This document shows, in pieces, positions 9,788 through 64,000 of a DNA stretch of 64,000 bases. Every line of letters starts with the position of its first letter. Within the stretch, counting starts at the first letter, position 1. This DNA is from Candidatus Yonathbacteria bacterium (GTDB lineage Bacteria > Patescibacteriota > Minisyncoccia > Phycocordibacterales > JACNGX01): assembly GCA_013334825.1 (NCBI GenBank), contig JAAXWR010000001.1, forward strand, positions 139,769-203,768, read 5' to 3'. The translations under genes and the position numbers were made by a program. Below the pieces are notes generated by a model, which had not been told where the DNA came from, ran no database searches, and saw only the letters and a list, made by a program, of their open reading frames with translations.

Positions 9788-9979
9788 CTAGATTCTCTCC
9801 TTCAGCTCTGCGACGAGCTTTGCGATATCACTCTCTTTCTCCTCTGCGATTTGATTCCACACGGCGACGAGTGTTTCATCGCTTTGCGCATCTTTCAGAT
9901 AATCATCTTTGATACGCCAAAGGCTGGTATGTTCTTCCACGATTTGGCGCATAATATTGTAGGCATTGTTGTCTAACAT
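9788..9979 (-). CDS. possible small hydrophilic helical protein (63 aa), unknown function
   Basis: ORF track only; no overlap with other genes; low complexity. Confidence 0.3.
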   Translation of the reverse strand: MLDNNAYNIMRQIVEEHTSLWRIKDDYLKDAQSDETLVAVWNQIAEEKESDIAKLVAELKERI

Positions 9980-11921: not shown

Positions 11922-12016
11922 ATATGAAAACGATAAACGATAAACGATGAAAAGTAAAGGAATATACAGATTATGGAGAAGTTATCCTACAAAAAACCCG
12001 GCATATGCCGGGGTGT

Positions 12017-15902: not shown

Positions 15903-16106
15903 AATGAGGTAAGTATATCATGCGCATGGTTCTTGCCCGCAAGGGAGATATGTGGGGAGGTGATGAATAAGGTCTTCAGGATGGTGCATGTGTTGCAATT
16001 AATTCTGGAACCTATGGTGCAATTATTTGACAATATATTGATATATGATATATCTGAGATGTGAAGTTCTTGCTAACTTAATCAATTGTTTAAATAGGGA
16101 GGAGTT

Positions 16107-16793
16107 ATGTCCGCAACCTCAGGTGTTGAAAGTGTCTGTGCAGGGCGCATTTTTACGCCCATCTCTAAAAAGAAATCTGTGGAGACGGAGGAGAGAGCAT
16201 GGATGTCCCGTGCTATAGCCGAAGAACTTGAGCGTATGGGATATCACGTCACTTATCCTGGTCGGCAGGACAATGGACAAATCTTTGGTACATACCTCAT
16301 AACTCGCACGTCAGATGGCTATGGTGCTATACGTATTATACAACATAAGAGCGCGTATAATGTTACCAGCCCTCTGCATCCACGTGAGGATCATAGTGTT
16401 TCTCTTTTTGTGGGATACAAAAATGGTTGTGGCGGAATATTGATGAAAAACCTCATTGACTCGGCCCCGGAGCCATTCAGATATCATGTGGAGATCCAAG
16501 AAGTCTTTGAGGAGATTCTCAAACCTTTTTGCCTTTCGCATGAGAACGATCATAAGAGGGAGCCAGAGGGAGGAAGGATTTCAAATCCATATGTTCATGA
16601 TTTTGAAAAAGATTCTCGTCCGGCGGAGTCTTATAAGACTCCCAAACAGTGGTCCAACCTTCTCAGTAGAAGATTGGAGAGGTTTGAACAGGTGGCTCCG
16701 AGGGTGGTCGCACGAGAACTTCCCAAGTTTTTTAATAAAGGATATGGTGCCATTCTAAAAACACTGGAAGGACACAAAATATCTGAAAGGTAA
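16107..16793 (+). CDS. hypothetical protein preceded by a consensus Shine-Dalgarno site
   Basis: 228-aa ORF with GGGAGGAG 6 nt upstream of the ATG, which is rare in this window, and a TTGACA -35-like hexamer at about 16028. No recognised domain. Confidence 0.55.
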   Translation: MSATSGVESVCAGRIFTPISKKKSVETEERAWMSRAIAEELERMGYHVTYPGRQDNGQIFGTYLITRTSDGYGAIRIIQHKSAYNVTSPLHPREDHSVSLFVGYKNGCGGILMKNLIDSAPEPFRYHVEIQEVFEEILKPFCLSHENDHKREPEGGRISNPYVHDFEKDSRPAESYKTPKQWSNLLSRRLERFEQVAPRVVARELPKFFNKGYGAILKTLEGHKISER

Positions 16794-16799
16794 GTGTTA

Positions 16800-16830
16800 C
16801 CAAAGCAGGGCGTGAGCCCTGCTTTTTTTG
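16800..16830 (+). terminator. rho-independent terminator
   Basis: aaagcaggg-cgtga-gccctgcttt followed by ttttt. Confidence 0.65.
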
Positions 16831-18133: not shown

Positions 18134-18448
18134 GATAAGTTAACGTTTCGTTATTGAGATACTGTTTCCAGAAAGTACTATACATAAATAATATGAATTT
18201 GCAATACTTGAAATGAGGAGTTAGAAATTAGGAATATCAAACTGGCACTCGAATCAAGAATTATGAATTAAGAATATTGACAAATAAAACCAGCTCCCAA
18301 TATTTTATAGAACTACGAACTACTCCGCCCAGCCCTTTTTAAAAGAGCTGGGCGGACCCGCGCGCTCCGCGTAGCGGAGACGTCGCGGGGAACTAAGAAC
18401 TACGTCATTCATGGGTATGGCAGATTGTTTTTCTGTTATACTTCTGGC

Positions 18449-19117
18449 ATGAGCAAAGAATCGTATACCTACACCATTGGCATTGATGAAGCGGGACGAG
18501 GACCTTTGGCGGGGCCGGTGTCTGTGGGTGTGGTGGGCATACCTGCCGAACACCAAAGTGTCGTGGAGGAAATGTTCGCACTTCTTAAAGGGCGAGACTC
18601 AAAAAAATGGTCGGAGAAAAAACGAGAAGAATGGTTCGAAAAAATTTGCGCGGCACGGCATGCCGGACTCATTGTGTTTTCTGGTGTGATGGTTGGCGCG
18701 CGTACTATTGATGAAAAAGGGATTATGTATGCAGTGAAGAGTGCCTTGGCACGAGGACTTGAGCGTCTTGATATGAATCCTCTCCATGTGCGAGTGGTTC
18801 TTGATGGGGGACTTCATGCACCTGCCGTATACGAACATCAAGAGACGATTATCAAAGGTGATGAAAAAGAGATTGTCATTGCAATGGCGTCTATTGTCGC
18901 CAAAGTAACTCGTGACCGACATATGCGTACTCTTGCGGAGAAATATCCCACATACGGATTTGAGGTACACAAGGGATATGGGACAGCGAAGCATTACGCA
19001 GCGATAGAGACATATGGGACATGTGAGGAGCATCGGAGAAGTTTTTTAAAGGGGAGCGGAAACTCGCGGAACGAACGCGGAATGTCGCGGAATTTACACG
19101 GACACAATTGGGGATGA
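18449..19117 (+). CDS. rnhB: ribonuclease HII; the C-terminal ~30 aa are encoded by a GCGGAA-type tandem array
   Basis: YTIGIDEAGRGPLAGPV and the downstream RNase HII motifs; start taken at MSKESY. Confidence 0.8.
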   Translation: MSKESYTYTIGIDEAGRGPLAGPVSVGVVGIPAEHQSVVEEMFALLKGRDSKKWSEKKREEWFEKICAARHAGLIVFSGVMVGARTIDEKGIMYAVKSALARGLERLDMNPLHVRVVLDGGLHAPAVYEHQETIIKGDEKEIVIAMASIVAKVTRDRHMRTLAEKYPTYGFEVHKGYGTAKHYAAIETYGTCEEHRRSFLKGSGNSRNERGMSRNLHGHNWG

Positions 19118-22978: not shown

Positions 22979-23020
22979 TGAATCAAGAATCAAGAATCAA
23001 GAATCAAGAATCAAGAATCA
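22979..23020. repeat. perfect 7-bp tandem repeat (GAATCAA) x6
   Basis: gaatcaagaatcaagaatcaagaatcaagaatcaagaatc read directly; a member of the dispersed GAATCAA/GAATCAC/GAAGCAA family. Confidence 0.85.
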
Positions 23021-23241
23021 AGAATCTGCTACAGATTAAGTATGACAGGTGGGGGATAAAAACACAAGTGAAGTTTTTGAATGCTCTTTCTTTTTATATT
23101 CCTAATTTCTAGATTCTAATTTTTTCGTCAATTTCTTGATTCTTGCTTCGTGATTCGTGCTTCGCTTTCATCTGTATCTATGAGCCTTTCTCACTACACA
23201 CTAACACCTCACGCAATAATTCTGTTATAATACATCCACTC

Positions 23242-27060: not shown

Positions 27061-27215
27061 CAGGTCGGAGGTCGTTCAAATGTGAGAAAAAAGAGAATTA
27101 AAATCTGCACGAACATCGGCCGTATGAAAACATAGACGCGGAAAGAAACGCGACTGAAATAGTCCACGCTTTCTGTGTATACATACGATTGTTCGTTACG
27201 TTGTTCATGAGAATT

Positions 27216-27244
27216 ATGATAGCATAGTTGATAGTTTTTGTCAA
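27216..27244 (-). promoter_or_regulatory. candidate sigma70-type promoter for the MFS gene
   Basis: On the minus strand, TTGACA (27244..27239), 17 nt, TATCAT (27221..27216). Confidence 0.35.
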
Positions 27245-27280
27245 TCACCACTAGGCGGCGCGAAGCGCCGCCTAGTGGTG
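27244..27280. other. 17-bp perfect GC-rich inverted repeat
   Basis: tcaccactaggcggcgc-gaa-gcgccgcctagtggtga, with no adjacent U-tract on either strand. Confidence 0.7.
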
Positions 27281-27308
27281 AGAATTCGTTTACCTCCGTT
27301 CAGTATTC

Positions 27309-29390
27309 TTAATTCTTGCTTCGTGATTCTTGATTCTCGTCTACCACTTCCATATCAAGGACGCGTGCGTCCAAATCTGCGCGGACGATGCGGATACGAA
27401 TGGGGTCGCCCAAGCGATAGCGTTTTTTGGTACGTTCTCCGATGATGGCATATTGTTTCTCATCAAGATTAAAAAAGTCATTACCGAGATCACGAATATG
27501 CACCAGTCCTTCCGCTCGCGTTTCTTTTTCTTCCACGTAAATACCAAATTTTGTTACACCAGAAATCGTGCCATCAAATTCTTCGCCGACATGACTTTGC
27601 ATGTATTCTACTTGTTTGTATTTGATAGATGCACGCTCGGCGTCCGCGGCATGCTTTTCCATCTCGGACGCATAGCGACTCATCGCTTCGTATGAATCAC
27701 GTTCCGTGTCTTTGACTGTGCCTCCTGAAAGGTGTGTTGCGAGGAGCCGGTGCACCATGACGTCGGGGTACCGACGAATGGGAGAGGTAAAGTGTGTGTA
27801 GTGTTCAAATGCAAGTCCAAAGTGCCCGATATTTCCCGTCGCATACACTGCCTTTGCCATGGAACGTATGGCTGCCGTAGTGATGAGTTGCTCTTCGGGC
27901 GTGCCTTTGACCTGCGCGAGGAGTTTGTTGATATCACGAGAGTTGGCACCCTGTTCGCCGATGGGCAATTCATATCCAAGTGTTTTTACAAACGTTGCGA
28001 GTTCGCGGAGACGGTCAGCATCGGGGACATCGTGAATACGATACACAAATGTCTTTTCCATGCCTTTGTCTTTGGCACCAATCCATTCCGCCACCCGCTT
28101 GTTGGCGAGAAGCATGAAGTCTTCAATGAGCTTGTGTGCGTCGAGACGCTCTTTGACATACACACCGAGTGGCTTGCCGTGTTCATCAAGATGAAAACGC
28201 ACCTCGTCTTTATCAAAAGAAATCGCGCCTTTGGCGAAACGTTCCTTTTGAAGGATATGCGCGAGCGTGTTGAGCGTGATGAGTGTGTCGCGAAGTGTGT
28301 CATCTTTCCCGTCAATAATCTCTTGGGCTTCTTCATAGGCAAAACGGCGGTCCGAGTGAATGACTGTTCTGCCAAACCACTCGTCCACAATTTCGGCACG
28401 ACCATGGGCGAGCGCATCAGCAGAAAACGTGAATATTGCCGAGAACGCAAGCTTGTCTTCGTTTGGGTTGAGACTACAGAGATCATTGGAGAGTACTTCG
28501 GGAAGCATCGGTATGGTGCGGTCTACGAGATAGACTGATGTGCCACGACGCGCGGCCTCTTTGTCGAGGGCAGTACCGGGGACAACGTAATGCGCAACAT
28601 CAGCGATGTGTACGCCCACTTCAATCGTTCCATCAGCAAGCGTTTGAAATGACAATGCATCATCAAAATCTTTGGCATCCGCAGGGTCAATGGTACAGGT
28701 GAGTACACCGCGCATGTCACGTCGGCGAGCAATTTCTTCGTCCGTAATGACACGGGCAATGGCATCTGCTTCACGTTCTACTTCTTCGGGAAAATCGGGG
28801 ACAATGCCTTTTTCAAGAGCAATGGCACGCATCTCCGCGTCATTGTCTCCTTTCATACCGATGCGTTCAATGACTGTGCCGACGGGATTGCTTCGTGGGT
28901 CGCGCCATTCTCCGATGCGAACATATACTTTTTCACCATCAGCAAGTGACGCGCTTTCTTGTTCAGGAATAATGATATCGCGATATACACGCTGATCGTC
29001 GGGGATGATAAAGACAATACCTTGTTCGCGAGAAACCGTCCCAACGAATTGTGTTTTTGCGCGAGTAACAACCGCAGAAACAGTACCAAAGAGTTCCTCT
29101 CCCTCACGGTGGGGAAGGAGAGAGATAGTAACAATATCGCCATGAAGAGCAGTATTTAAGTCATCTGTCTCGATACGAATACGTTCATCACGATTGTCGG
29201 GAGAGAGGAGTACATAACCGACACCTTTGCCAGTAATAGAGATGACACTCTCAAGTTCTGTGGGAAGAGGTCCTTTGGGAACAAATGCGCGTGGGTTGGG
29301 TCGGTCTGTACGACGAACAGGACCGCGGGATTGTCCATGCGCGGAAGCCCCGTGCGGATTCTTGTTGTTTGGTTGATGGTGTTGTGTCAT
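27309..29390 (-). CDS. rnr: ribonuclease R
   Basis: Cold-shock/OB N-terminus, RNB catalytic domain (TIDPADAKDFDDALSF), and a C-terminal S1 domain. Start taken at MTQHHQ because the ORF-track N-terminus is read-through of a repeat region. Confidence 0.88.
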   Translation of the reverse strand: MTQHHQPNNKNPHGASAHGQSRGPVRRTDRPNPRAFVPKGPLPTELESVISITGKGVGYVLLSPDNRDERIRIETDDLNTALHGDIVTISLLPHREGEELFGTVSAVVTRAKTQFVGTVSREQGIVFIIPDDQRVYRDIIIPEQESASLADGEKVYVRIGEWRDPRSNPVGTVIERIGMKGDNDAEMRAIALEKGIVPDFPEEVEREADAIARVITDEEIARRRDMRGVLTCTIDPADAKDFDDALSFQTLADGTIEVGVHIADVAHYVVPGTALDKEAARRGTSVYLVDRTIPMLPEVLSNDLCSLNPNEDKLAFSAIFTFSADALAHGRAEIVDEWFGRTVIHSDRRFAYEEAQEIIDGKDDTLRDTLITLNTLAHILQKERFAKGAISFDKDEVRFHLDEHGKPLGVYVKERLDAHKLIEDFMLLANKRVAEWIGAKDKGMEKTFVYRIHDVPDADRLRELATFVKTLGYELPIGEQGANSRDINKLLAQVKGTPEEQLITTAAIRSMAKAVYATGNIGHFGLAFEHYTHFTSPIRRYPDVMVHRLLATHLSGGTVKDTERDSYEAMSRYASEMEKHAADAERASIKYKQVEYMQSHVGEEFDGTISGVTKFGIYVEEKETRAEGLVHIRDLGNDFFNLDEKQYAIIGERTKKRYRLGDPIRIRIVRADLDARVLDMEVVDENQESRSKN

Positions 29391-29556: not shown

Positions 29557-29739
29557 AACATACGAAACAAGACGGGAAGCACGAATCAAGAATCAAGAAG
29601 CAAGAATACGAGACGTGAATTATGAATAATGAATTAAGAATTATGGGACGGACGAGGGGTTAGAAATTAGAAATTAGGAAAATGGGGCTACGAAGTACGA
29701 ACCAATACGAATAAATAACACTCCTTTTTAGTTGTCATT

Positions 29740-29935: not shown

Positions 29936-30030
29936 AACTTTTGAGAACTTCTCGTCCGTTCTACGAACTAAGAACTACGAACTTGTTAAAGCGCTTGCCA
30001 CGGAAGTTGCTTCGTGCTAGGATATGTCCC

Positions 30031-30444
30031 ATGCTGAAAATACGTTTACAACGCGTCGGTCGCAAACATGACCCCTCATTCCGAGTGGTGGTGTCTGATG
30101 CCCGATATGCCGCCAAGAGTGGAAAGGCGCTTGAAGTGCTCGGTACATACAATGCTCGTTTTGGTACACCGACATTCAAACCAGAACGCATTAAAGAATG
30201 GATTGGCAAAGGTGCTCAATTGTCAGATACCGTGCACAATCTTCTCATTGATGCCAAGATTATTGAAGGTAAAAAGATCAATGCTCTTCCCAAGAAAACA
30301 CCAATCAAGAAAGAAGTTCCAGCCGAAGCCGCTCCTGTAGTGGTCACATCGGACACAATGACATCGTCAATGGAGGAAGCCTCGAACGAAGAAACCTCTT
30401 CTGTGGACGATGGTTCCTCAACTACTGAAGTTTCTGTGGGATAG
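30031..30444 (+). CDS. rpsP: ribosomal protein bS16 with a C-terminal extension
   Basis: MLKIRLQRVGRKHDPSFRVVVSDARYAAKSGKALEVLGTYNA. Confidence 0.85.
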   Translation: MLKIRLQRVGRKHDPSFRVVVSDARYAAKSGKALEVLGTYNARFGTPTFKPERIKEWIGKGAQLSDTVHNLLIDAKIIEGKKINALPKKTPIKKEVPAEAAPVVVTSDTMTSSMEEASNEETSSVDDGSSTTEVSVG

Positions 30445-30463
30445 TGCTAATTATTATAGGCGA

Positions 30464-30513
30464 AATAAAGAAATGAAAACACGGCCTTCAGGCCGTGTTT
30501 TCATTTCTTTATT
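30464..30513. terminator. bidirectional terminator made of a 23-bp perfect stem
   Basis: aataaagaaatgaaaacacggcc-ttca-ggccgtgttttcatttctttatt followed by ttt. The stop of the minus-strand ORF lies inside the 3' arm. Confidence 0.75.
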
Positions 30514-31186
30514 TTTCGAACAGGTCAGGAACTTTTTTCAGCGTTTCCTTTGCCTGTTCAGCTTCATTATAAGAATTATATGGTACTGGAAGAATTTTTG
30601 TTTCTCCGTTTTTCTTTCCATTTTCTTCCATATGGTATCGGATATGATATTTAGATGTCGCAATATCCTGTAGAATCTCAATTCCAGAGCCGTCCCTATT
30701 GCTTCCCGCGATATTTCTAAAAGCACTAAGTGGTAATATATCTTCACCGCACTGGTGCAGGATTGCATTAGTATTTTCATCACAATCTTCTTCATATAAA
30801 ACATCAGTGGTCTCGATTCTCTCCTGCCCATTTGCTATTGCAGAAAGGATGTCCTCAGGAATATTTTTCAATGTTGTTTGTTTTGAACTATCTTCATATT
30901 CCCCAACTCTCTTGTTAAGTACTTGGATTGTAAGAATGATGGGCAAGTCTCCCTTGTCTGTATTGGGAACATCTTTTTCAGCGTCTTTTTTATAGTAATT
31001 ATAAAATGTCTCGTCAGAGCTGCGATAGAAAATATCTTTATCATCGTCAGCTCTTTTGTAGTAATAAACTCTCTCTGTATGTTCAAACGTATTGCCTTCA
31101 TCAAAAAATTTCTGTGCCGCCTCAAATTTTTCAGCCGGGGACTTCTCTTCGGAGATGTTACCGGCTGCGGGTATATTTTCATGCAT
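30509..31186 (-). CDS. hypothetical acidic protein; AT-rich orphan gene inserted between rpsP and khpA
   Basis: 225-aa ORF with no recognised motif; opposite strand to the surrounding operon. Confidence 0.5.
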   Translation of the reverse strand: MHENIPAAGNISEEKSPAEKFEAAQKFFDEGNTFEHTERVYYYKRADDDKDIFYRSSDETFYNYYKKDAEKDVPNTDKGDLPIILTIQVLNKRVGEYEDSSKQTTLKNIPEDILSAIANGQERIETTDVLYEEDCDENTNAILHQCGEDILPLSAFRNIAGSNRDGSGIEILQDIATSKYHIRYHMEENGKKNGETKILPVPYNSYNEAEQAKETLKKVPDLFEK

Positions 31187-31386
31187 ATTTAAGAAGTAGT
31201 TTGTTATTGTCTACTAATATAGATTATCTTAAGATGTAATTTTTTTTTGTCAATGTAACTGTGAATATTTGTCGATAAGTAACTAATTCTTCTGTTTTGA
31301 TACTGACTTCTCATCCCCATAGTTTTGTCTTGCTCGTCAGGATATTTTCGTCTATAGTTATAAGGTACAGGTCGATTTAACAGGTA

Positions 31387-31731
31387 ATGCACATGACTGC
31401 TATGGAACAAGATCAAGCCTTTCTGGAATACGTCATCAAAGCACTTGTTGACAATCCGGATGCCGTTAAAGTGTCCCGCAAAGTGGACGAGATGGGAGTT
31501 CTTCTCACGCTCGATGTCTCTCGCGAGGATATGGGCAAAATCATCGGCAAGAGTGGAAATACCGCCAAAGCCGTTCGTACGCTTCTTCGTGTCGTCGGTA
31601 TGAAGAATGACGCGCGCGTCAATCTCAAAATCAACGAGCCCGAGGGTGGTCTACGCGACACGGGATATGCCGGCGGATCTTCTGCTGCTGCCGATCTCGA
31701 CGCCGCAATGGACGAACTCAAAGAAGAGTAG
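31387..31731 (+). CDS. khpA: KH-domain RNA-binding protein (KhpA/YlqC-like) with an acidic C-terminal extension
   Basis: VIKALVDNPDAVKVSR ... GKIIGKSGNTAKAVRTLLRVVGMK. Confidence 0.75.
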   Translation: MHMTAMEQDQAFLEYVIKALVDNPDAVKVSRKVDEMGVLLTLDVSREDMGKIIGKSGNTAKAVRTLLRVVGMKNDARVNLKINEPEGGLRDTGYAGGSSAAADLDAAMDELKEE

Positions 31732-31844
31732 GCGTGAAATATGGAAAATGAAATATGAATGGATATGACGCGTTGCGTCTGTACGTTCAATTTCTTTTTC
31801 AATCAATACGCATCGCAGCATCCCGCAAGCGCAAGCAAGGGAAG

Positions 31845-31878
31845 CACCAAAAAACGGGCCTCGGCCCGTTTTTTGGTG
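31845..31878 (+). terminator. rho-independent terminator
   Basis: caccaaaaaacgggcc-tc-ggcccgttttttggtg. Confidence 0.7.
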
Positions 31879-32111
31879 CTTATAGAAATTTTTATTGACA
31901 TATATACCATATAAACGTACTCTATGTGTGTAAGTGTTTTCTTTCGAGGGTAATTTTTTCGGTATTCTTTTCTGCCTTAATTCTGTATCAGTCTCGTATA
32001 GTTTTCGTATTGTTCCCGCGTTCGTTTTGCGAATTTCCGCGTCTCATCCGCATTGTTTCTGCGATGTTCCGCGTTTGATCCGCATCGTGTCCGTGTAGGT
32101 TCCACATAGGT

Positions 32112-50707: not shown

Positions 50708-51013
50708 ATGTCTATCACTGAATTCCACATCACTGACGCGCTTAAAACCGTCAAAGACCCCGAACTTGATATTGACATCGTGTCACTTGGGCTTATTCGT
50801 ACGATTACCGTTGATGATGAAACGGTGACCGGTGTACCGGGTGCGGAAATTGTCATGACACTCACGACGCCACTCTGTCCATTTGCGGGAACACTTATTG
50901 AGTCAGTTGAAGACGCGGTGCGTGCACTGGGGCTTGAAGATGTGCGCGTGGAACTCTCTTTTGACCCTCCATGGGAAGCATCCGATGAGCTCAAGATTAT
51001 GTTGGGATTATAG
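50708..51013 (+). CDS. sufT: DUF59/MIP18-family Fe-S assembly protein (SufT-like)
   Basis: VKDPELDIDIVSLGLI ... TLTTPLCPFAG. Confidence 0.75.
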   Translation: MSITEFHITDALKTVKDPELDIDIVSLGLIRTITVDDETVTGVPGAEIVMTLTTPLCPFAGTLIESVEDAVRALGLEDVRVELSFDPPWEASDELKIMLGL

Positions 51014-51039
51014 AGAAAGACAGTGATAAGCTCGTCTAT

Positions 51040-51082
51040 AAACAAACAGAGGTTCCTTAAGGAACCTCTGTTTGTTTCATTT
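51040..51082 (+). terminator. rho-independent terminator of the suf operon
   Basis: aaacaaacagaggttcc-ttaa-ggaacctctgtttgttt followed by cattttt. Confidence 0.7.
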
Positions 51083-51358
51083 TTCTTACTGGATTTTACA
51101 ACCTGCAAAGCTTTAGTGAAGTAGGTGACTCAGCATCCGCGTTTTAATAGTTTTTCCGTGTATCTAAAATCATGTTCAGAATGAGAGACTTCACTGAGTT
51201 ACGAGTTATAAGTTTCAAGAACGCTTACGAATAACGAATACGTACAAATATACGAATACGACTCTTTTTCTTTTTCATTTTATCGTTTACCGTTTATAGT
51301 TTTCTCTTCTCATATTTCTAATTTCATATTTCATCATTCGTTTTCCGTATTCTTGATT

Positions 51359-55128: not shown

Positions 55129-55301
55129 AAGTGAATTTTTAGGAAATAGGTTATAGGGATAGACATCCGAATCAAGAATCACGAAGCATGAATCAAGAGT
55201 ACGAAAGATGAATGAAGAAATATGAATATACGAATAACGAATGTGTACGAATATACGAATAAAAAGCTCATTCTACACGTGTTATATATCATTCGTATGT
55301 T

Positions 55302-56245: not shown

Positions 56246-57490
56246 ATGATTCTTCTTCGTACTATCAAAACATCATGGACCGCGCTTCTTATCAATAAGG
56301 CACGTTCGCTTCTTACCATACTGGGTATCGTGATTGGTGTTGCCGCAATCATTTTGATTATGGCAATAGGTCAAGGTGCGCAGGATCTCATCCTTGGTGA
56401 AATTGGTGGGCTTGGCGCTGACACGGTTATTGTCCGTCCTGGGAAACAACCAACAGGCCCTTCTGATTCGGCCAATATGCTTTTTTCAGATTCACTCAAA
56501 GAGCGTGAACTTGATGCGTTGCGCAAAAAAAGTAATGTCCCTACGCTCAAAAGCGCGGAACCAGCGGTTCTTGTCCCTGCGACTGTTTCCTATAAAGGAG
56601 AAACATACCGCCCTGAGATATTGGGGTGGTCAGCGGATAATATGAGTAATATTCTTGATATCCACATTGAACAAGGGACGTCGTTTGGTGAGAGAGAAGA
56701 TAGACAAAAAGAAAATGTCGCGGTTATTGGTGATAAAGTTCGTACAGAACTGTTTGACAATGAAGATCCCTTGGGAAAAAACATTCGTATCAAAGATAAA
56801 AACTTTCGTGTGATTGGTGTTTTTCCTCCGTCGGGACAAGCGCTCTTTGTTGATGTTGATGAACTGGTTCTTGTGCCACCCTCGACTGCGCTCACATATC
56901 TGTTAGGCTCTGATCATTACAATGAGATTATTGTTCAGGCGGAATCTTCTGATGTAGTTGATCAGACAGTGCTTGATATAGAACGAACTCTTCGCGATAT
57001 GCATGATATTACTGATCCTAAAGACGATGATTTTTTTGTTCAAACACAAAAAGAGCTTCTTTCAATGGTGGGGACTATTTTATCTGTTCTCACCGCATTT
57101 CTTGCTTCCATGGTAGCCATCTCTCTTGTGGTAGGAGGCATTGGCGTGATGAATATCATGCTCGTATCAGTGTCTGAGCGCACGCGTGAAATTGGTCTAC
57201 GTAAGGCAGTGGGCGCAACGAATGTTGATATCCGCCGCCAATTTCTTATTGAAGCAATTGTGTTAACCGGTATTGGTGGTGTGATAGGGACACTCATTGG
57301 TTTTGCGTTGTCTGCTCTCGCGGCTGTTATTTTGTCACAAGTGCTTGGCGTGGCATGGGGTATTTCATTCCCTGTAGGTGCGGCGCTTCTTGGTATCGGT
57401 GCTTCTGCTGCTGTGGGACTTGTATTTGGTTCGTACCCTGCGCGCAAAGCATCAGAAAAGAGCCCAATTGAGGCACTACGGTATGAGTAA
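56246..57490 (+). CDS. ABC transporter permease, FtsX/MacB-type (4 TM plus a large periplasmic loop)
   Basis: Periplasmic MacB-PCD-like loop and a C-terminal FtsX fold ending ...SPIEALRYE. Confidence 0.85.
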   Translation: MILLRTIKTSWTALLINKARSLLTILGIVIGVAAIILIMAIGQGAQDLILGEIGGLGADTVIVRPGKQPTGPSDSANMLFSDSLKERELDALRKKSNVPTLKSAEPAVLVPATVSYKGETYRPEILGWSADNMSNILDIHIEQGTSFGEREDRQKENVAVIGDKVRTELFDNEDPLGKNIRIKDKNFRVIGVFPPSGQALFVDVDELVLVPPSTALTYLLGSDHYNEIIVQAESSDVVDQTVLDIERTLRDMHDITDPKDDDFFVQTQKELLSMVGTILSVLTAFLASMVAISLVVGGIGVMNIMLVSVSERTREIGLRKAVGATNVDIRRQFLIEAIVLTGIGGVIGTLIGFALSALAAVILSQVLGVAWGISFPVGAALLGIGASAAVGLVFGSYPARKASEKSPIEALRYE

Positions 57491-57559: not shown

Positions 57560-57588
57560 TTGCATATTATACCTTTTTATGGTATAAT
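57560..57588 (+). promoter_or_regulatory. near-consensus sigma70 promoter with extended -10
   Basis: TTGCAT (57560..57565), 17 nt ending in TGG, TATAAT (57583..57588); AAGGAGG SD at 57624..57630, 8 nt before the ATG. Confidence 0.6.
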
Positions 57589-57638
57589 ATAAATAATAAC
57601 TTCTTCCCAAAAATAAATAAAAAAAGGAGGGTACTGCC

Positions 57639-58040
57639 ATGTTGTGGACCCACCGAATTGAAAGAGAATATGCGGAAGTGATTCGTGAGGCGTTTTTTGA
57701 AGCCGTCACATATATCTTCCGCAAGTTTGAGGCAATCAATCCGCTTCAGGCGGAATGTTGCTTCGAACTTTTACGGAGAAACATCCTCCACGGTCTCTAT
57801 GAGACTGTTACGGAGGAGACAAGGAATCTCTTTCTCCTGAGAACATCTTCTCAGGTTGAGCCCTTTTATCTTGAGGGTGATACCTATAAGACGTTTCTTC
57901 AGGAAGTGAAGAAACATTTTCTGACCGCGCAGGTCAGAAGGATTCTCGACGCGCATGTTCTTTTATGGGAGATGCGTCTCGAAGAGATTTTTTCTTCATT
58001 TTTGGAATGCCGGCATTTGTATTCCGGCATTGCGTGCTAA
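57639..58040 (+). CDS. hypothetical 133-aa cytoplasmic protein with the strongest expression signals in the window
   Basis: Consensus promoter, SD and terminator; no recognised motif. Confidence 0.6.
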   Translation: MLWTHRIEREYAEVIREAFFEAVTYIFRKFEAINPLQAECCFELLRRNILHGLYETVTEETRNLFLLRTSSQVEPFYLEGDTYKTFLQEVKKHFLTAQVRRILDAHVLLWEMRLEEIFSSFLECRHLYSGIAC

Positions 58041-58043
58041 TAT

Positions 58044-58067
58044 CGGGCCTTCATGGCCCGTTTTTTT
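58044..58067 (+). terminator. rho-independent terminator
   Basis: cgggcc-ttcat-ggcccg followed by T7. Confidence 0.7.
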
Positions 58068-58076
58068 ATAAAACAC

Positions 58077-58104
58077 AAAAAGCGTCCGCACGGACGCTTT
58101 TTGT
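58077..58104. terminator. bidirectional terminator (serves the minus-strand CMD gene)
   Basis: aaaa-agcgtccg-cac-cggacgct-ttttt. Confidence 0.6.
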
Positions 58105-58126
58105 GTTTTATTTACTGAGAGAGATA

Positions 58127-58654
58127 TTATCGAGGCATGACACCAAGTGCATCATTGAAACGATTGATATAATTGAAAAGTCCAATTGCCGCGGTAAGCT
58201 CAACAATTTGCCCATCATTGTAATGTACGTTAAGTTCCGTGTAGATTTCCTCAGGCACTTCAAGTGCATTTTTTGTGACCGCTTCCGCATAGCGAACGGC
58301 GATTTGTTCGTCGGGACTCATCTGTGCAATATCGGTATCAACAAGACGCATGTCTTCATCAGAGACGCCAAGTTTTTTCATCATGGCTTCTGTCACTCCA
58401 ACGCAATACGCACATCCGTTTAGTTTTGAAACTTTGTATGCAATCTTCCATTTATTATCTTGCTCGACAAGTCCAGGACCCATGGTTGCTTTAAAGAGCG
58501 CATAAAATGTCGCAAGGATTTCTGGACGATGTGCCATGACGCGTGCCCATTCGGGAACGCTTCCACGAGTGTCAATAAATTCTTGAAAAACTGGTGTCGC
58601 GACACCAACAGCTTCGGTATCTTCTATGATATGTACTTGTGTAATGACGGTCAT
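58127..58654 (-). CDS. carboxymuconolactone decarboxylase (AhpD-like) family protein
   Basis: CMD-fold core with the NGCAYCV redox motif. Confidence 0.75.
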   Translation of the reverse strand: MTVITQVHIIEDTEAVGVATPVFQEFIDTRGSVPEWARVMAHRPEILATFYALFKATMGPGLVEQDNKWKIAYKVSKLNGCAYCVGVTEAMMKKLGVSDEDMRLVDTDIAQMSPDEQIAVRYAEAVTKNALEVPEEIYTELNVHYNDGQIVELTAAIGLFNYINRFNDALGVMPR

Positions 58655-58788
58655 AAGAATTAAGGGTTAAGAATTAATAAAGAACACCGCTTTTTGTTAA
58701 GTATACCACATGATATACATGAATGAATTGAAAAGGGGATAGGTGTATTGGTCTCTGATGTGTTGACGATATTACTTAAATTGATTTT

Positions 58789-60015
58789 TTATTCATAACG
58801 AAGTGCCTCAATGGGTGAAAGACGCGATGCCTTACGAGCGGGGTACCATCCAAAGATGATGCCGATGGTTGCTGAAACACCAAATGCAAGAAGTATCGGA
58901 CTTAATGTGACGGATGTAGAAAGATCACTTACTGCTCCAATGATGGTAGATGTTCCCCATCCGAATATAATACCGATGACACCACCGATAGTGGTGAGGG
59001 CGACTGCTTCTGCGAGGAATTGAAAAGTAATTTCTTTATTTTTTGCGCCAAGTGCTTTACGTAATCCAATTTCCCGTGTACGTTCTGTGACGGTAGTGAG
59101 CATCATGTTCATAATACCAATACCACCAACAAGGAGAGAAATACCCGCAACGGCTCCGAGAAGAAGTGTAAATGTTCCTGTGACAGAAGATGCGGTTTCA
59201 ACAATATCTGCTTGATTGTATACAGTGAAATCGGCAGTACCACCATCTGCAATATTATGTGTCTTCATCAACACATCAGTAACGTTTGATTGTACTGTAT
59301 CCATGTCGGCATCTTCCGCGACTTTGATATATAGTGTGTTTATTGCTTTACTCCCCGTTATATATTGTTGTTCAGTAGAAAGTGGAATAAGTATACGATC
59401 ATCCGCACTTCCAAAACCAGTACCTCCTTCTTCTGTGAGAATACCGATGACAGTAAAAATAACACCATTCATACGGATTTTTTGTCCTATTGCATCGGTA
59501 TTTTCTCCAAATAAGTCATCACGTGTAGTAGGCCCAAGAACAGCAACTTTTGCGTATCCCTTTGTTTGAGACGCAGTGATAAATGATCCTGTATCAAGGG
59601 TTATATTACGTACGTCAGCATAGGTATCTGTTACACCGACAACAGACGTGTTGGTATTGTTTCCATTCGCGACAATTTGTACACGTGTGGATACTTCAGG
59701 AGCAACACCTGAGATTCCTTGAATACTTGATGAAACTGCATCTGCGTCTTCTGTTGTTAATGTCTCAGCTGAGCCAGCTCCTTGAGATACTCCTCTCATG
59801 CCTGTGGTACGCGATGCCCCAGGATATACCATGAGAAGATTGGAACCAATAGATTCAATGCTGTCTTCGACACTTTCCTGTGCTCCTTGCCCAATGCTAA
59901 TCATTGCGATGACTGAGCCAATACCAATAACAATACCAAGAATAGTAAGTGATGAACGAACTTTATTACCAACAAGGGCCGCATATGTTTCATTGGAGAG
60001 ATCAGAAAAATGCAT
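58789..60015 (-). CDS. ABC transporter permease, FtsX/MacB-type (paralog of 56246..57490)
   Basis: Same architecture and the same C-terminal ...SPIEALRYE. Confidence 0.85.
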   Translation of the reverse strand: MHFSDLSNETYAALVGNKVRSSLTILGIVIGIGSVIAMISIGQGAQESVEDSIESIGSNLLMVYPGASRTTGMRGVSQGAGSAETLTTEDADAVSSSIQGISGVAPEVSTRVQIVANGNNTNTSVVGVTDTYADVRNITLDTGSFITASQTKGYAKVAVLGPTTRDDLFGENTDAIGQKIRMNGVIFTVIGILTEEGGTGFGSADDRILIPLSTEQQYITGSKAINTLYIKVAEDADMDTVQSNVTDVLMKTHNIADGGTADFTVYNQADIVETASSVTGTFTLLLGAVAGISLLVGGIGIMNMMLTTVTERTREIGLRKALGAKNKEITFQFLAEAVALTTIGGVIGIIFGWGTSTIIGAVSDLSTSVTLSPILLAFGVSATIGIIFGWYPARKASRLSPIEALRYE

Positions 60016-60016
60016 A

Positions 60017-60733
60017 TTATGATGTCATATGAACGCGACGTGGAGTAGCATTTTGTGAATCCGAAACAATATGCCCGTCTTTTATTTCAATAATACGTGA
60101 TGCATGTTCAGCAACATAACGTTCATGTGTGATAAGGATGATTGTATGCCCGTGTTCTTCATTGAGCTTTTGAAATGTGTCAAGAACAATTTCACCAGTT
60201 TTTGAATCGAGATTTCCTGTTGGTTCATCAGCAAAAATAATTGAGGGGTTGTTGACAAGCGCGCGTGCAATTGCAACACGTTGCATTTGCCCACCAGAAA
60301 GTTGATTAGAAAGGTGATCCCATCTATCTTCAGGAAGCCCTGCCGCGTGAAGTGCCTGCTCTGCGCGAGCGTGACGTTCTTGTACGGGGACGACGTTGTC
60401 ATAAATGAGTGGAAGCATAACATTACGAAGGACAGTCGCTCGTGATAAAAGATTGAACGACTGAAAGACAAAACCAATATTGCGTCCGCGAATATCCGCG
60501 AGTTCATCATCTGAAAGCGCGAGCATGTCATGGTTGTTGAGAACATAGGAACCACTGGTCGGACGGTCGAGAGCACCAAGAATATGCATGAGCGTTGATT
60601 TTCCTGATCCAGACGTTCCAATGATAGCAACGAATTCGCCTGTATCCACAGAAAAAGAAACATCATGAAGAACAGTGAGCTCATTATCTTTTCCGATGTT
60701 ATATGTTTTAACAAGGTTTGCGCAAGAAATCAT
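60017..60733 (-). CDS. ABC transporter ATP-binding protein, MacB/LolD-type (paralog of 55521..56237)
   Basis: [37 protein letters not shown]. Start at MISCANL; the stop overlaps the permease start. Confidence 0.88.
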
Positions 60734-60865
60734 AGAAGGACAAATATTGTGAGTAATGAACAATGACAATGTTGGTGGAAAGGTGGTGTGTAAGAGAATT
60801 TTTTGTGTGAAAAAAGATGGTGTAAGAATATATAATAAGATATACCGTATAATCAAAAATACTTC

Positions 60866-62674
60866 TTATCTCATCCCAGGACCCATTCCAGGAATACCCA
60901 TACCACCACCTGAAGGCATTGCATTTTCTACTTCGGACGAGGAGGTTGTCCTTGTTGATGAAGAAGAAATGACGGTGTCTCCCACAACTAATCCTTCCAT
61001 AATAACGGTGACAGTATCATTTGATGGTCCTATTGTGACTGGCGTTTGTGTTGGTATACCCTCTGTTATGAGCATGACGGATGATATACCATCTTTTGTT
61101 TGTACTGCTTCATTAGAAATAACAAGAGCGGGAGAAATTGATTCCGTAATAATTTCAGCGGTGAGTGTCATACCTGGCTTGATACGCGTATCATCAGTCT
61201 CAAATACAATATCAACGTCATAGGTGACGACACCTTGGCTGACTGTTCCTAATACATCGACTTCCGCAACGGTTCCAACGATGGAGAGATCGGATACAGC
61301 ATCAAACGTGATACGGACACTATCACCTACATCAACTCCTTCAACGTCAACTTCATTGAGCGATATTGTTGCCATAAGTCCTTCGCCTATGATATTTCCA
61401 ATACTTGCGTTTGAGGAGACGCTGTCACCAACTACGATATCCAACGATGCCAATGTTCCCGAAACAGGTGCGATAATAAACATATCTGCATAGGACGCTT
61501 GCGCGTCCGCGAGGGCGTTTTTCTTTTGAAGGAGTGAAAGTTCTTGGCTCCGTATGTCATAACTATCTGCTCCCGCGGTAATATCATTAAGATCAGCTTG
61601 TTTTTCAATAATTGCACGTTCCGCAACGATAAGTGCTTTTTCATTATTCTCAATAGAACGAATCGATGATAATAATGATGTAATATGATTATTTGTTGTC
61701 CCTGTATGGGAAGAAAGGGATGAAAGATGTGTTGCAGAAAGTGAATCAATAGAGAGGTCACGTTCTGAAAGCTCGTCACGATATAATTGAATAAGGTCAT
61801 TCATGCTTTTGACCGCGTCTGAAGTAAGCTTCATCGCCGTGTATGTTTCGTTCATAAGAGAGGCAATTGTCTCTTTGTCGGAGTATCGAGACGCATTTTT
61901 ATACGCAGTAAACGCCGCGTCGTACGCAGTTTTTGCTTTTGTGTAGGCATCGTAGGCATCATCTGCGAATGATGCTGCACGTGTATCGTATTGTCCCGCG
62001 ACACTTGCATAATAGTCAATATTCCATTGTCCATTTCCAGCAATATCATCAGAGAAGAGTATGTCCTGAAGACCTTCAATGACATCAGGCATATCAAGAA
62101 AAGCATCCGCGACATCATTAAATCCATCTTCATATCCTTCTGTTATTGATTCTTCAGCGTCTCTTTTTTCATCTTGTGCATCACTGAGGGCGTTTGTCGC
62201 TTTTAAAACGTCAACATCATCAGCCGCTGCCATGAGTTTGTCATAGGAAAGCTGTGCGCTTTCGAGAGCAATTTTTGCATCACGAAGTGTCTTCGCGGCA
62301 TCTTTTCCGTCAAGTGTGGCGATAACCGCACCCTTTGTAATATACTGTCCTTTTTTCGCAGATACTGAGACAACAGCACCTGAGGTTTCCGCATGTATTT
62401 CAATATCCCGTTCGGCTGCAACTTGTCCTGATCCTGAAACAGTTTTTTCAAACGTAGTACTTGTTACTGTATCAGTTGTCGGTATGGATGGTTTTTCATT
62501 AGTAGTTGTTGATTTCCATATAAGAAATCCAATAACAAAACAGAGTAAGATTCCCACAATACTCACAAGAATTTTATGCGCGGATATAAAAGAAATAGTT
62601 GTTTTTTTGATGTGTGAAAAAGAGATGTTCATAAGAAAAATAAAAAATAATAAATAGATATAGACAACAAACAA
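60866..62674 (-). CDS. HlyD-family periplasmic adaptor (paralog of 53512..55128) with a Gly/Met-rich C-terminal tail
   Basis: TM helix, lipoyl-like segments and long coiled coils; tail MPSGGGMGIPGMGPGMR. Confidence 0.8.
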   Translation of the reverse strand: MFVVYIYLLFFIFLMNISFSHIKKTTISFISAHKILVSIVGILLCFVIGFLIWKSTTTNEKPSIPTTDTVTSTTFEKTVSGSGQVAAERDIEIHAETSGAVVSVSAKKGQYITKGAVIATLDGKDAAKTLRDAKIALESAQLSYDKLMAAADDVDVLKATNALSDAQDEKRDAEESITEGYEDGFNDVADAFLDMPDVIEGLQDILFSDDIAGNGQWNIDYYASVAGQYDTRAASFADDAYDAYTKAKTAYDAAFTAYKNASRYSDKETIASLMNETYTAMKLTSDAVKSMNDLIQLYRDELSERDLSIDSLSATHLSSLSSHTGTTNNHITSLLSSIRSIENNEKALIVAERAIIEKQADLNDITAGADSYDIRSQELSLLQKKNALADAQASYADMFIIAPVSGTLASLDIVVGDSVSSNASIGNIIGEGLMATISLNEVDVEGVDVGDSVRITFDAVSDLSIVGTVAEVDVLGTVSQGVVTYDVDIVFETDDTRIKPGMTLTAEIITESISPALVISNEAVQTKDGISSVMLITEGIPTQTPVTIGPSNDTVTVIMEGLVVGDTVISSSSTRTTSSSEVENAMPSGGGMGIPGMGPGMR

Positions 62675-62688
62675 TATGTCGTTTTACC

Positions 62689-62744
62689 CGACGCCACACT
62701 CTCTTTTTGTTGTGTGTGAATTGAAAAGAGGGTGTGGCGTCGAA
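62689..62744. other. long inverted repeat (~18-bp stem, 16-nt loop) between the hlyD start and an upstream small ORF
   Basis: gacgccacactctctttt ... aaaagagggtgtggcgtc. Confidence 0.5.
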
Positions 62745-62801
62745 CGAGAACTATTGCGATGCGTTCCCGTGAGACGGAGACTGTTATTGTGTTATTTCAA
62801 T

Positions 62802-63125
62802 TTACTCGGAAGGCATTATTTGTATTTCTGGAGTTGTTGAGGATGTTGAATCACCGCCTCTTTTTGATTGAGCAGAACCATTTACAGGCATAGAGGGACG
62901 ATTTTCTTCACGTCCAGACATATCTTCACGCGCATGCATTATCCTCTCTCCTTGTGGAGGACGTGTTGCGTGTGTGAATGTATTCCATGCAAATATACCG
63001 ATTATGATTACTGCAAGAATACTTATTACTGTGAGAAGTGACTTTTTATGCGTGAAAAAAAATCTGTTGCCACTGTTTTTATGAGTATCTTTTTTATCTT
63101 GAGATACATGTTCTTCTGTGTGCAT
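62802..63125 (-). CDS. hypothetical small single-pass membrane protein
   Basis: One TM helix and an S/T-rich C-terminus. Confidence 0.4.
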   Translation of the reverse strand: MHTEEHVSQDKKDTHKNSGNRFFFTHKKSLLTVISILAVIIIGIFAWNTFTHATRPPQGERIMHAREDMSGREENRPSMPVNGSAQSKRGGDSTSSTTPEIQIMPSE

Positions 63126-63395: not shown

Positions 63396-63899
63396 TTAGG
63401 AATTATCGGATGTGTCAGTATCTCTCTGGCGACCGTTTCCGTTGCGAGGACCATGTCCTTCTCCTTCACCATGACCTTGGGGGTCACGCTCGGACATGTG
63501 TGCAAGGCGTTCATCAGCCTCTTCTTGAGTAAGAGTGCCGTTTGCGACAAGTTCAGATACATGTTCTTTCATGCGTTCTTCAGCTTTCGCCCGGAGAGCG
63601 GTATGGATGGTTTCTGAATCAAGACCGTTTTCAGAAAGGATGTCGCGCATATTTTTTCCTTCTTCAAATGCTGTCTTGATAATATCTTCTGATAACCCAG
63701 TCACTTCGGATATTTCGGTGATACGTTCCGCTTCATGTGTCGCACGTTCTTCTTCTGACATTGCTGGTTCACGTTCTTGTCCACAGGTGCATGTATCATT
63801 TCCGCTGGAAGCGTTTACATATCCATATGCGGATCCAGCGAGAGTGAGTGCAAGAGCGCCCATGAGGAAATAATTGAGTTTTGTTGGTTGTGTTGTCAT
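63396..63899 (-). CDS. hypothetical secreted protein (signal peptide, acidic, disordered Gly/Glu-rich C-terminus)
   Basis: MTTQPTKLNYFLMGALALTLAGSAYG signal-like N-terminus; no motif. Confidence 0.5.
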   Translation of the reverse strand: MTTQPTKLNYFLMGALALTLAGSAYGYVNASSGNDTCTCGQEREPAMSEEERATHEAERITEISEVTGLSEDIIKTAFEEGKNMRDILSENGLDSETIHTALRAKAEERMKEHVSELVANGTLTQEEADERLAHMSERDPQGHGEGEGHGPRNGNGRQRDTDTSDNS

Positions 63900-63936
63900 A
63901 AATAAAATAAGTTTATTATGAATAATAAGGAGATGT

Positions 63937-64000
63937 ATGAATATGATTGTCGACTGTGCATCGACAAGAAAAGGACATAGGACGTACGTTTCCGTATGCG
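63937..64000 (+). CDS. partial ORF whose start is in the window and which runs off the right edge, preceded by an AAGGAG SD
   Basis: taAGGAGatgtATGAATATGATTGTCGACTGTGCATCG... with no stop before the window end. Confidence 0.25.
   Translation, partial: MNMIVDCASTRKGHRTYVSVC

Follow-up and report, generated by a model that had tools for sequence, protein, structure and literature searches.

What kind of element carries a full set of consensus expression signals in a genome where classical ribosome-binding sites are rare? The question arises in a 64,000-nucleotide (nt) stretch of DNA from a Candidatus Yonathbacteria bacterium of the Parcubacteria (contig JAAXWR010000001.1, positions 139,769 to 203,768; hereafter, the window), which contains an orphan open reading frame (ORF) of 133 codons at 57639..58040 on the forward strand, here called ORF133. 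The preliminary description of this stretch had presented ORF133 as its only gene with a Shine-Dalgarno (SD) sequence, and had offered several roles for it, among them a factor associated with the neighboring exporters and an element of foreign origin. The reading that we favor, to which we give a little more than an even chance, is that ORF133 is a true accessory gene, confined to its lineage and expressed as a stable, structured mRNA that relies on its SD.

Layout of the ORF133 unit and conservation of its signals

Orthologs of ORF133 are present at the loci that we call L001, L002, L003, and L004, and their proteins are 89, 65, and 62% identical to that of the window (65% for L002). L005 and L006 are the corresponding loci of the nearest relatives, which do not contain the gene. 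The AAGGAGG motif, the TTGCAT-17-TATAAT promoter, the hairpin followed by seven T residues (T7), and the 133-residue frame were all found at the positions that the preliminary description had given. The features of the unit are listed below, with hairpins taken from minimum free energy (MFE) structures.

57560..57565, forward strand: -35 hexamer TTGCAT, read directly and identical in L004 and L002
57580..57588, forward strand: extended -10 element TGGTATAAT, with TG at 57580-81 and TATAAT at 57583-57588, 17-nt spacer after TTGCAT
57596..57638, forward strand: putative A-rich 5' leader of about 43 nt, its transcription start placed from the position of the -10 element
57624..57630, forward strand: SD sequence AAGGAGG, 8-nt gap to the ATG at 57639, duplex with ACCUCCUUA of -12.1 kcal/mol
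57626..57654, forward strand: local hairpin over the SD and AUG, predicted at -10.9 kcal/mol, the 3' part of the SD pairing with codons 3-6 and the AUG in the loop
57639..58040, forward strand: ORF133 coding sequence, 133 residues
57664..58031, forward strand: hyper-structured core of the coding sequence, about ten local hairpins
57671-57723, 57724-57769, 57775-57837, 57839-57852, and 57853-57885, forward strand: first five hairpins of the core
57893-57915, 57918-57940, 57948-57980, 57981-57997, and 58006-58031, forward strand: last five hairpins of the core
58044..58067, forward strand: intrinsic terminator CGGGCC-TTCAT-GGCCCG followed by T7, hairpin at 58044-58060
58068..58111, no strand assigned: perfect 21-bp inverted repeat, arms 58068-58088 and 58091-58111, 100% complementary; probably the terminator of the convergent AhpD/CMD gene, giving a two-way back-stop

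The promoter scan registered the same region as TTTGCA-18-TATAAT with a TG (10/12 matches). It found 38 promoter-like sites in 14 kb against 31 expected, so that the promoter match of ORF133 is, taken alone, statistically unremarkable. An inverted repeat over the -10 box (57564-57590) was considered as an operator and set aside, since it is not kept in L002. In the MFE fold of the 5' region, the first 30 nt of the leader are unpaired; the fold of the full transcript pairs 57607-57614 with 57998-58005.

We compared these signals with those of L002, in which synonymous sites are saturated. The -35 hexamer, the extended -10 element, the SD, and the first codons have been retained, and the surrounding spacer has not: the promoter and SD blocks are 69% and 77% identical between the window and L002, compared with 37% for the flanking and upstream spacer and 43% for the leader. 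The extended -10 element is unchanged across the window, L004, and L002. AAGGAGG is intact in L004 and L002, and in L001 a GGAGG stands 5 nt ahead of the corresponding ATG. A hairpin and T-run follow the stop codon in L002, L001 (T7), and L004. The hairpin over the SD and AUG is partly conserved overall and is also predicted in L002 (-11.5 kcal/mol). With promoter, SD, and terminator each kept in orthologs, the earlier view of ORF133 as a self-contained monocistronic unit holds. Given that the SD has been retained through saturated synonymous divergence, it appears to be selected in the present host.

The translation signal of ORF133 in a Shine-Dalgarno-poor landscape

We calculated duplex energies between positions -22..-3 of 46 curated starts in the window and the 16S tail ACCUCCUUA. 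The median start, at +0.7 kcal/mol, pairs more weakly than random positions do (-2.2 kcal/mol), and only two of the 46 fell below -6 kcal/mol: ORF133 (-12.1) and a second orphan gene at 16107 (-11.9, a value reached by 0.16% of random positions), with the next starts at -5.0 and -4.7. The -20..-1 regions contain 12% G (24% in the whole window); upstream regions are also T-rich, with SD-like sequences less frequent there than at random positions. A hexamer resembling the -10 box (TATAAT-like) stands 4-10 nt before the start in 10 of the 46 genes, against a background of 3%; examples are the starts at 1735, 15902, 18449, 23242, 29390, and 49404. This proximity suggests, from the start regions themselves, that leaderless mRNAs may be common among genes of the window.

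The translation signal of ORF133 is thus a genuine outlier in an SD-poor genome, as had been proposed. The SD poverty itself was borne out by the 46-start scan, and what did not survive is the status of ORF133 as the sole SD gene, since the gene at 16107..16793 is a second and an ORF at 63937 may be a third. Similarly, the proposal that the expression signals of ORF133 are unlike those of its host is right for the leader and the SD only, because -10 boxes of the TATAAT type are also seen ahead of other genes in the window. Among the genes at L001, the ORF133 ortholog has the clearest SD (-10.0 kcal/mol).

The second self-contained SD-led unit occupies 16027-16828 on the forward strand, with a TTGACA-16-(TG)TATATC promoter, a ~46-nt leader, GGGAGGAG ahead of the start codon (ATG at 16107), a 228-residue ORF that runs to 16793, and a strong terminator. 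Its product, which is 100% identical to a hypothetical protein of a Candidatus Yonathbacteria metagenome-assembled genome, had no Pfam or PADLOC match, and homologs were found only in Yonathbacteria-like genomes. This family keeps a TTGAC-type -35, an (TG)ATATAT -10, and GGAGGAGTT-ATG in both the window and L093, an independent lineage. At L087, the ortholog has a weaker GGGGGA, which is still the clearest SD there (-8.4 kcal/mol).

Can the host recognize an SD at all? We sought a 16S ribosomal RNA in the window and 88 loci from which to read the anti-Shine-Dalgarno (anti-SD) sequence, and found just one truncated, unrelated fragment (L022). The avoidance of SD-like motifs inside coding regions, an indirect gauge of the anti-SD, gave scattered z-scores of -2.1 to +1.5. 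Tsurumaki et al. (2022, PMC9297842) report that only 48% of 16S genes from Parcubacteria have a recognizable anti-SD motif, and that a subgroup is without it. Given that two unrelated genes keep GGAGG through deep divergence, the sequences argue that SD recognition works in this clade.

Ten extra kb of the source genome contained one more possible SD start, that of a 57-residue ORF at 63937. Here AAGGAG stands 4 nt before the ATG (63927-64000, forward strand; continued in L089 at 9790-9963), with a duplex of -9.3 kcal/mol, and the frame extends past the end of the window. This ORF is antisense to the 3' end of a putative anti-sigma gene and, to judge by its L001 counterpart, which has no SD, it may be spurious.

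Evidence for a protein product

Four observations indicate that ORF133, judged at the level of its sequence, is a real protein-coding gene. Substitutions relative to L002 fall at the three codon positions in numbers of 34, 25, and 60, a third-position excess; dN/dS is 0.21; the frame is open without insertions or deletions across three lineages (62-65% amino acid identity); and AlphaFold2, given four sequences, returned a confident all-helical model of seven helices (predicted local distance difference test 82, predicted template modeling score 0.81). The product, of 16 kDa with an isoelectric point of 5.75 and a grand average of hydropathy (GRAVY) of -0.09, contains no hydrophobic segment, signal peptide, or membrane segment, and is predicted to be a soluble, acidic, cytoplasmic, all-helical protein. 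Cys40, Cys41, His106, and Cys124 are present in every full-length ortholog; a thiol- or metal-dependent regulatory role would be a guess from these residues.

The preliminary description had found no recognizable domain in this protein, and broader searches agree. Scans with Pfam, NCBIfam, PHROGs, and PADLOC gave zero family matches, a sequence search of the PDB gave none, and Foldseek against the PDB and BFVD gave best E-values of about 2 (2.1 in the PDB) with template modeling scores of at most 0.35. The family itself comprises three related clusters (89, 65, and 62% identity) among 5.8 billion proteins. When 1.84 billion protein representatives were searched with a profile, only this family and two spurious repeat proteins were returned; scans of 185,579 species genomes, Joint Genome Institute (JGI) metagenomes, and viral contigs with the family alignment returned no further copies; and tblastn against phages and plasmids returned no match to ORF133. 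The exact protein is on record for the Yonathbacteria genome itself and for two Logan assemblies, which have the same neighbors. Homologs are thus confined to about five metagenome contigs, with no fold match beyond them.

Several specific identities were tried and rejected. An HEPN RNase was considered on the strength of R46-x4-H51, which occurs in the window and L002, but His51 is replaced by Asn in L001 and there was no HEPN fold match. A CsoR-like or anti-sigma role found no family match. Membership of the CMD/AhpD family belongs to the neighboring gene at 58127..58654, which matches PF02627, and ORF133 does not. A phage or defense protein was not matched in PHROGs, PADLOC, BFVD, or the phage and viral contigs.

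A hyper-structured coding sequence

Folding of the ORF133 transcript was unusually stable. Its 5' part has a folding z-score of -5.8 in the window and -7.4 in L002. In a 200-nt sliding scan of the whole window (mean z about -0.55, standard deviation 1.6), five consecutive windows across 57601-58200 gave z-scores of -4.8, -7.0, -4.1, -8.4, and -6.8.

The coding sequence alone is far more stable than its recodings. In its native form, it has an MFE of -161.6 kcal/mol, compared with -118.0 +/- 5.6 kcal/mol for synonymous-codon shuffles (z = -7.8) and -112.8 kcal/mol for codon permutations (z = -8.6). The L002 ortholog gave z-scores of -5.4 and -7.7 in the same two tests and the L001 ortholog -2.8 and -5.4, whereas three control genes ranged from -0.1 to -1.4 in the synonymous test and from -0.2 to -1.5 in the permutation test. 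Among 63 coding segments drawn from all 44 genes of the window, ORF133 was the extreme (z = -9.0), with the next segment at -4.0.

The alignment of four sequences points to selection on this fold. Its consensus structure contains 116 pairs, with 90.8% of cells paired, and compensatory double changes occur at 17 pairs, compared with 7.1 +/- 2.1 in shuffles (0 of 500 reached 17) and 1-7 in slid controls. Seven local hairpins lie at the same positions in each of the three lineages. Reciprocal comparisons showed changes from a Watson-Crick pair to G-U about twice as often as changes to A-C (35:15, 35:19, and 42:22), a bias that favors selection on the sense RNA strand. No Rfam 15 family was matched at gathering thresholds or at E <= 10, and the best sub-threshold matches lay on terminators only.

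The same constraint may bear on base composition. At 0.507, the GC content of third codon positions (GC3) in ORF133 is the highest of the 44 genes (0.375 +/- 0.062), and its codon-usage fit is low, while its total GC of 0.450 is close to the genome mean of 0.445. The high GC3 and poor codon fit can be attributed to the RNA-pairing constraint rather than to foreign origin.

We also considered whether hyper-structure is a general trait of orphan or slot genes and rejected this, since ORF228 (the gene at 16107), its L087 homolog, the slot gene of L006, and the 57-residue ORF gave z-scores of only -0.7 to -2.7. Elsewhere in the window, 200-nt windows with z <= -5 were found at 30401-30600, 27101-27300, 18201-18500, 31701-31900, and 50901-51100, mostly intergenic and in several cases over terminator-like hairpins. 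The window at 31701-31900 lies within about 900 nt (31190-32110) that contain no convincing ORF or Rfam match and could hold an unrecognized RNA.

Neighborhood and distribution

As the preliminary description had it, HlyD-ABC-MacB operons converge on ORF133 from both sides and a CMD/AhpD gene adjoins it.

ending at 57490, forward strand: HlyD-ABC-MacB operon (with MacB1)
58127..58654, reverse strand: CMD/AhpD-family gene, PF02627 match
58789..62632, reverse strand: second MacB-ABC-HlyD set

The best relatives of the AhpD-like neighbor are in metagenome-assembled genomes of Parcubacteria/Patescibacteria. The order MacB1, ORF133, and convergent AhpD is common to the window, L004, and L002/L003. 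MacB1 and AhpD are both present at L005 (74 and 78% identity) and L006 (70 and 75%), from the nearest species-level genomes, with no ORF133 between them. The L005 slot contains about 300 bp of unrelated noncoding DNA, in which we sought a remnant of ORF133 and found none, and the L006 slot contains an unrelated 177-residue membrane protein gene with its own promoter and no SD.

At L001 the situation is reversed: the ORF133 ortholog is present without MacB1 or AhpD, between the N-terminus of an IS30-like transposase and a homolog of the secreted-protein gene at 63396..63899. Beyond that homolog lies a pair of extracytoplasmic function (ECF) sigma and anti-sigma genes, as on the right flank of the window. 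The contig end of L001 (1-95, reverse strand) encodes MKHTAKTYTHISEKERFTIETLLRSSVSIRT, which we take to resemble the N-terminal helix-turn-helix of an IS30-family transposase; this fragment is directly upstream of the ORF133 ortholog and divergent from it. The block 58127-63125 (AhpD, MacB2-ABC2-HlyD2, and a 107-residue ORF) is missing in L001, a 5-kb polymorphism among relatives that is either an insertion relative to L001 or a deletion there. Given this patchiness of neighbors and of presence across L001, L005, and L006, gene order indicates that ORF133 is a dispensable gene with no constant partner, in a region prone to rearrangement.

Period-7 tandem repeats, many of them intergenic and some beside gene starts, were seen at 22980-23026, 27305-27337, 29583-29607, 55169-55198, 11928-11948, 29961-29983, and 58654-58677. 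The heptamer GAATCAA/TTGATTC occurs at four of the sites, on either strand, with 6.7 perfect copies at 22980; other repeat heptamers are AAACGAT, CTACGAA, and TAAGAAT. These could be protein-binding arrays or contingency repeats.

A proposed mechanism and the alternatives to it

If ORF133 is a lineage-restricted accessory gene with a structured, SD-dependent message, then its mRNA, leadered and about 470 nt long, would be transcribed from its sigma-70-type promoter to its own terminator, and would be translated through a canonical SD, unlike those of nearly all other genes of the window. Under selection at synonymous sites, the coding region would have acquired its succession of about ten hairpins, of which the first would partly cover the SD and AUG. 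Since the start region would be partly closed by that hairpin, strong SD pairing would be needed to initiate. The expected consequence would be a nuclease-resistant, long-lived mRNA whose translation is throttled, and opening of the start region by strong SD pairing would make this a stored or conditionally translated mRNA. The combination of tight mRNA folding with an SD suggests such a stored or specially controlled message.

A number of observations tell against this proposal. Its absence from L005 and L006 makes ORF133 dispensable, and the hairpin over the SD and AUG is missing in L001. The covariation support comes from three independent lineages only, and the antisense strand folds nearly as well by z-score, so that a role at the DNA level or of an antisense transcript is possible. 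The second SD-led gene, at 16107, is not hyper-structured, and SD and hyper-structure are therefore not obligatorily linked. If the host belongs to the Parcubacteria subgroup that lacks the anti-SD, then AAGGAGG cannot act as an SD. Finally, the L004 copy, which is 89% identical, has lost 1 nt from a T-run (L004 545-548) and goes out of frame at codon 108. Read in the old frame, the 25 codons that follow still show 96% identity, and the site of the deletion is within a predicted hairpin loop. The change reflects either faulty assembly or an inactivation that took place very recently.

That deletion leaves the RNA structure intact and could suit a bifunctional RNA, in which the ~470-nt transcript would act in its own right, as regulator, scaffold, or decoy, in addition to encoding the 133-residue protein. 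The extreme, conserved structure with compensatory changes over the whole transcript, and the maintenance of overall stability though individual pairs turn over, would also be expected of such an RNA. We nevertheless regard it as unlikely, if worth keeping in view, given the clear constraint on the protein, the lack of an Rfam match at any threshold and of a conserved unpaired motif or identified target, and the possibility that faulty assembly of a 909-bp contig produced the L004 frameshift. It is scarcely credible that the RNA is noncoding and the ORF fortuitous. The extreme folding z-score and the lack of protein homologs outside the family would fit, but the 34/25/60 pattern, the dN/dS of 0.21, a 133-codon frame open without insertions or deletions in three lineages, the confident AlphaFold2 model, and a conserved SD at the correct spacing would not. 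A highly structured mRNA in a patchy intergenic slot, monocistronic, with a local hairpin over the SD and AUG and a helix predicted to join the SD region to the 3' end, also recalls a type I toxin-antitoxin system, in which a stable, folded toxin mRNA with an occluded SD is activated by processing. Here too we see very little likelihood: the product is soluble and acidic, of 133 residues (GRAVY -0.09) and not a short (<60 residues) hydrophobic peptide, and PADLOC gave no match. The promoter scan found no antisense promoter-like site within the coding sequence, and the only minus-strand match in the unit mirrors the -10 box (57593-57566); the predicted 5'-3' helix consists mostly of A-U and G-U pairs and competes with the terminator hairpin.

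The two readings that the preliminary description had offered fared poorly. A recently acquired foreign or mobile gene that keeps the SD-type signals of its donor would explain the patchy distribution, with absence from the same slot in L005 and L006, the different context in L001 by an IS30-like transposase fragment, and the highest GC3 and low codon-usage fit of the window. We think this improbable, however, as no donor emerged, and no homolog beyond its own small family, from searches of 1.84 billion representatives, 185,579 species genomes, viral contigs, and phage and plasmid collections. Moreover, total GC matches the genome mean and the atypical codons are attributable to pairing; TATAAT-type -10 boxes stand before other genes of the window; no flanking repeats, integrase, or transfer RNA gene were found in the window; and an SD kept through saturated synonymous divergence is one selected in the present host. 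The link to the exporters, as an immunity, regulatory, or cargo factor of the MacAB-type systems, or as an accessory of the AhpD-like gene, draws on the shared gene order in the window, L004, and L002/L003 and on conserved cysteines beside a thiol-peroxidase-related gene. We hold out little hope for it: L005 and L006 keep both neighbors without ORF133, the L001 ortholog has neither, and ORF133 is convergent to AhpD, with separate terminators and no cotranscription, and has no signal peptide or membrane segment.

Relation to known systems

The background at this locus resembles that of SD-poor or anti-SD-lacking Parcubacteria (PMC9297842) and of bacteria rich in leaderless mRNAs, with G-poor upstream regions and -10 boxes that abut starts. 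ORF133 is an exception to it, and the conservation of its SD speaks against a loss of SD recognition in the lineage. The closest parallel that we found is rpsU (bS21) of Flavobacterium johnsoniae, the one strong-SD gene in the SD-"blind" Bacteroidia (PMC9976891, PMC13000453). Like rpsU, ORF133 has a rare, conserved, strong SD in an SD-poor genome (here, 2 of 46 starts at <= -6 kcal/mol), and by analogy this suggests a special route or ribosome state, with SD use that may be regulatory rather than the default. Unlike rpsU, ORF133 does not encode a ribosomal protein (133 residues, isoelectric point 5.75, no Pfam or NCBIfam match), and at least two unrelated orphans carry an SD here, the second without structure, so that the parallel is functional at most. 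Nor is rpsU known to have anything like the hyper-structured coding sequence.

Type I toxin mRNAs of the hok/Sok kind are compact, very stable, highly folded, and monocistronic, with an occluded SD and 5'-3' pairing. ORF133 shares the compact folded monocistronic mRNA and the variable intergenic slot, with SD occlusion and 5'-3' pairing only predicted here, but its product is a large, soluble, nonhydrophobic protein, the promoter scan gave no sign of an antisense RNA gene, and its fold consists of local hairpins over the entire coding sequence, with no long-range switch. In dual-function RNAs such as SgrS/SgrT, RNAIII/delta-hemolysin, and SR1/SR1P, a structured RNA doubles as a protein template, and the ORF is short and a minor part. 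In ORF133, by contrast, the ORF makes up about 85% of the transcript.

The locus recalls two kinds of element already described, the rare SD-led gene of a lineage poor in SDs and the mRNA that is structured or has a dual function. It is also conceivable, though we doubt it, that ORF133 represents a new bifunctional element: a hairpinned, nuclease-resistant RNA that would serve as a translationally poised store, read only by SD-capable ribosomes, with the RNA fold itself also under selection. A variant that is still more speculative would make it an SD-bearing, RNase-resistant message built for translation outside the normal regime of its producer.

Implications for translation in Parcubacteria

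The Parcubacteria are uncultured and have reduced ribosomes, and some of them reportedly lack the anti-SD. ORF133 and the orphan at 16107 are conserved, natural SD-led genes in a setting where about 95% of starts have no SD, and could thus be used as probes of start-codon choice in such organisms, showing whether SD pairing is used and under what conditions. In addition, the ORF133 coding sequence offers an unusually clean natural case of selection on the structure of a whole mRNA, and could shed light on the coupling between mRNA stability and translation.

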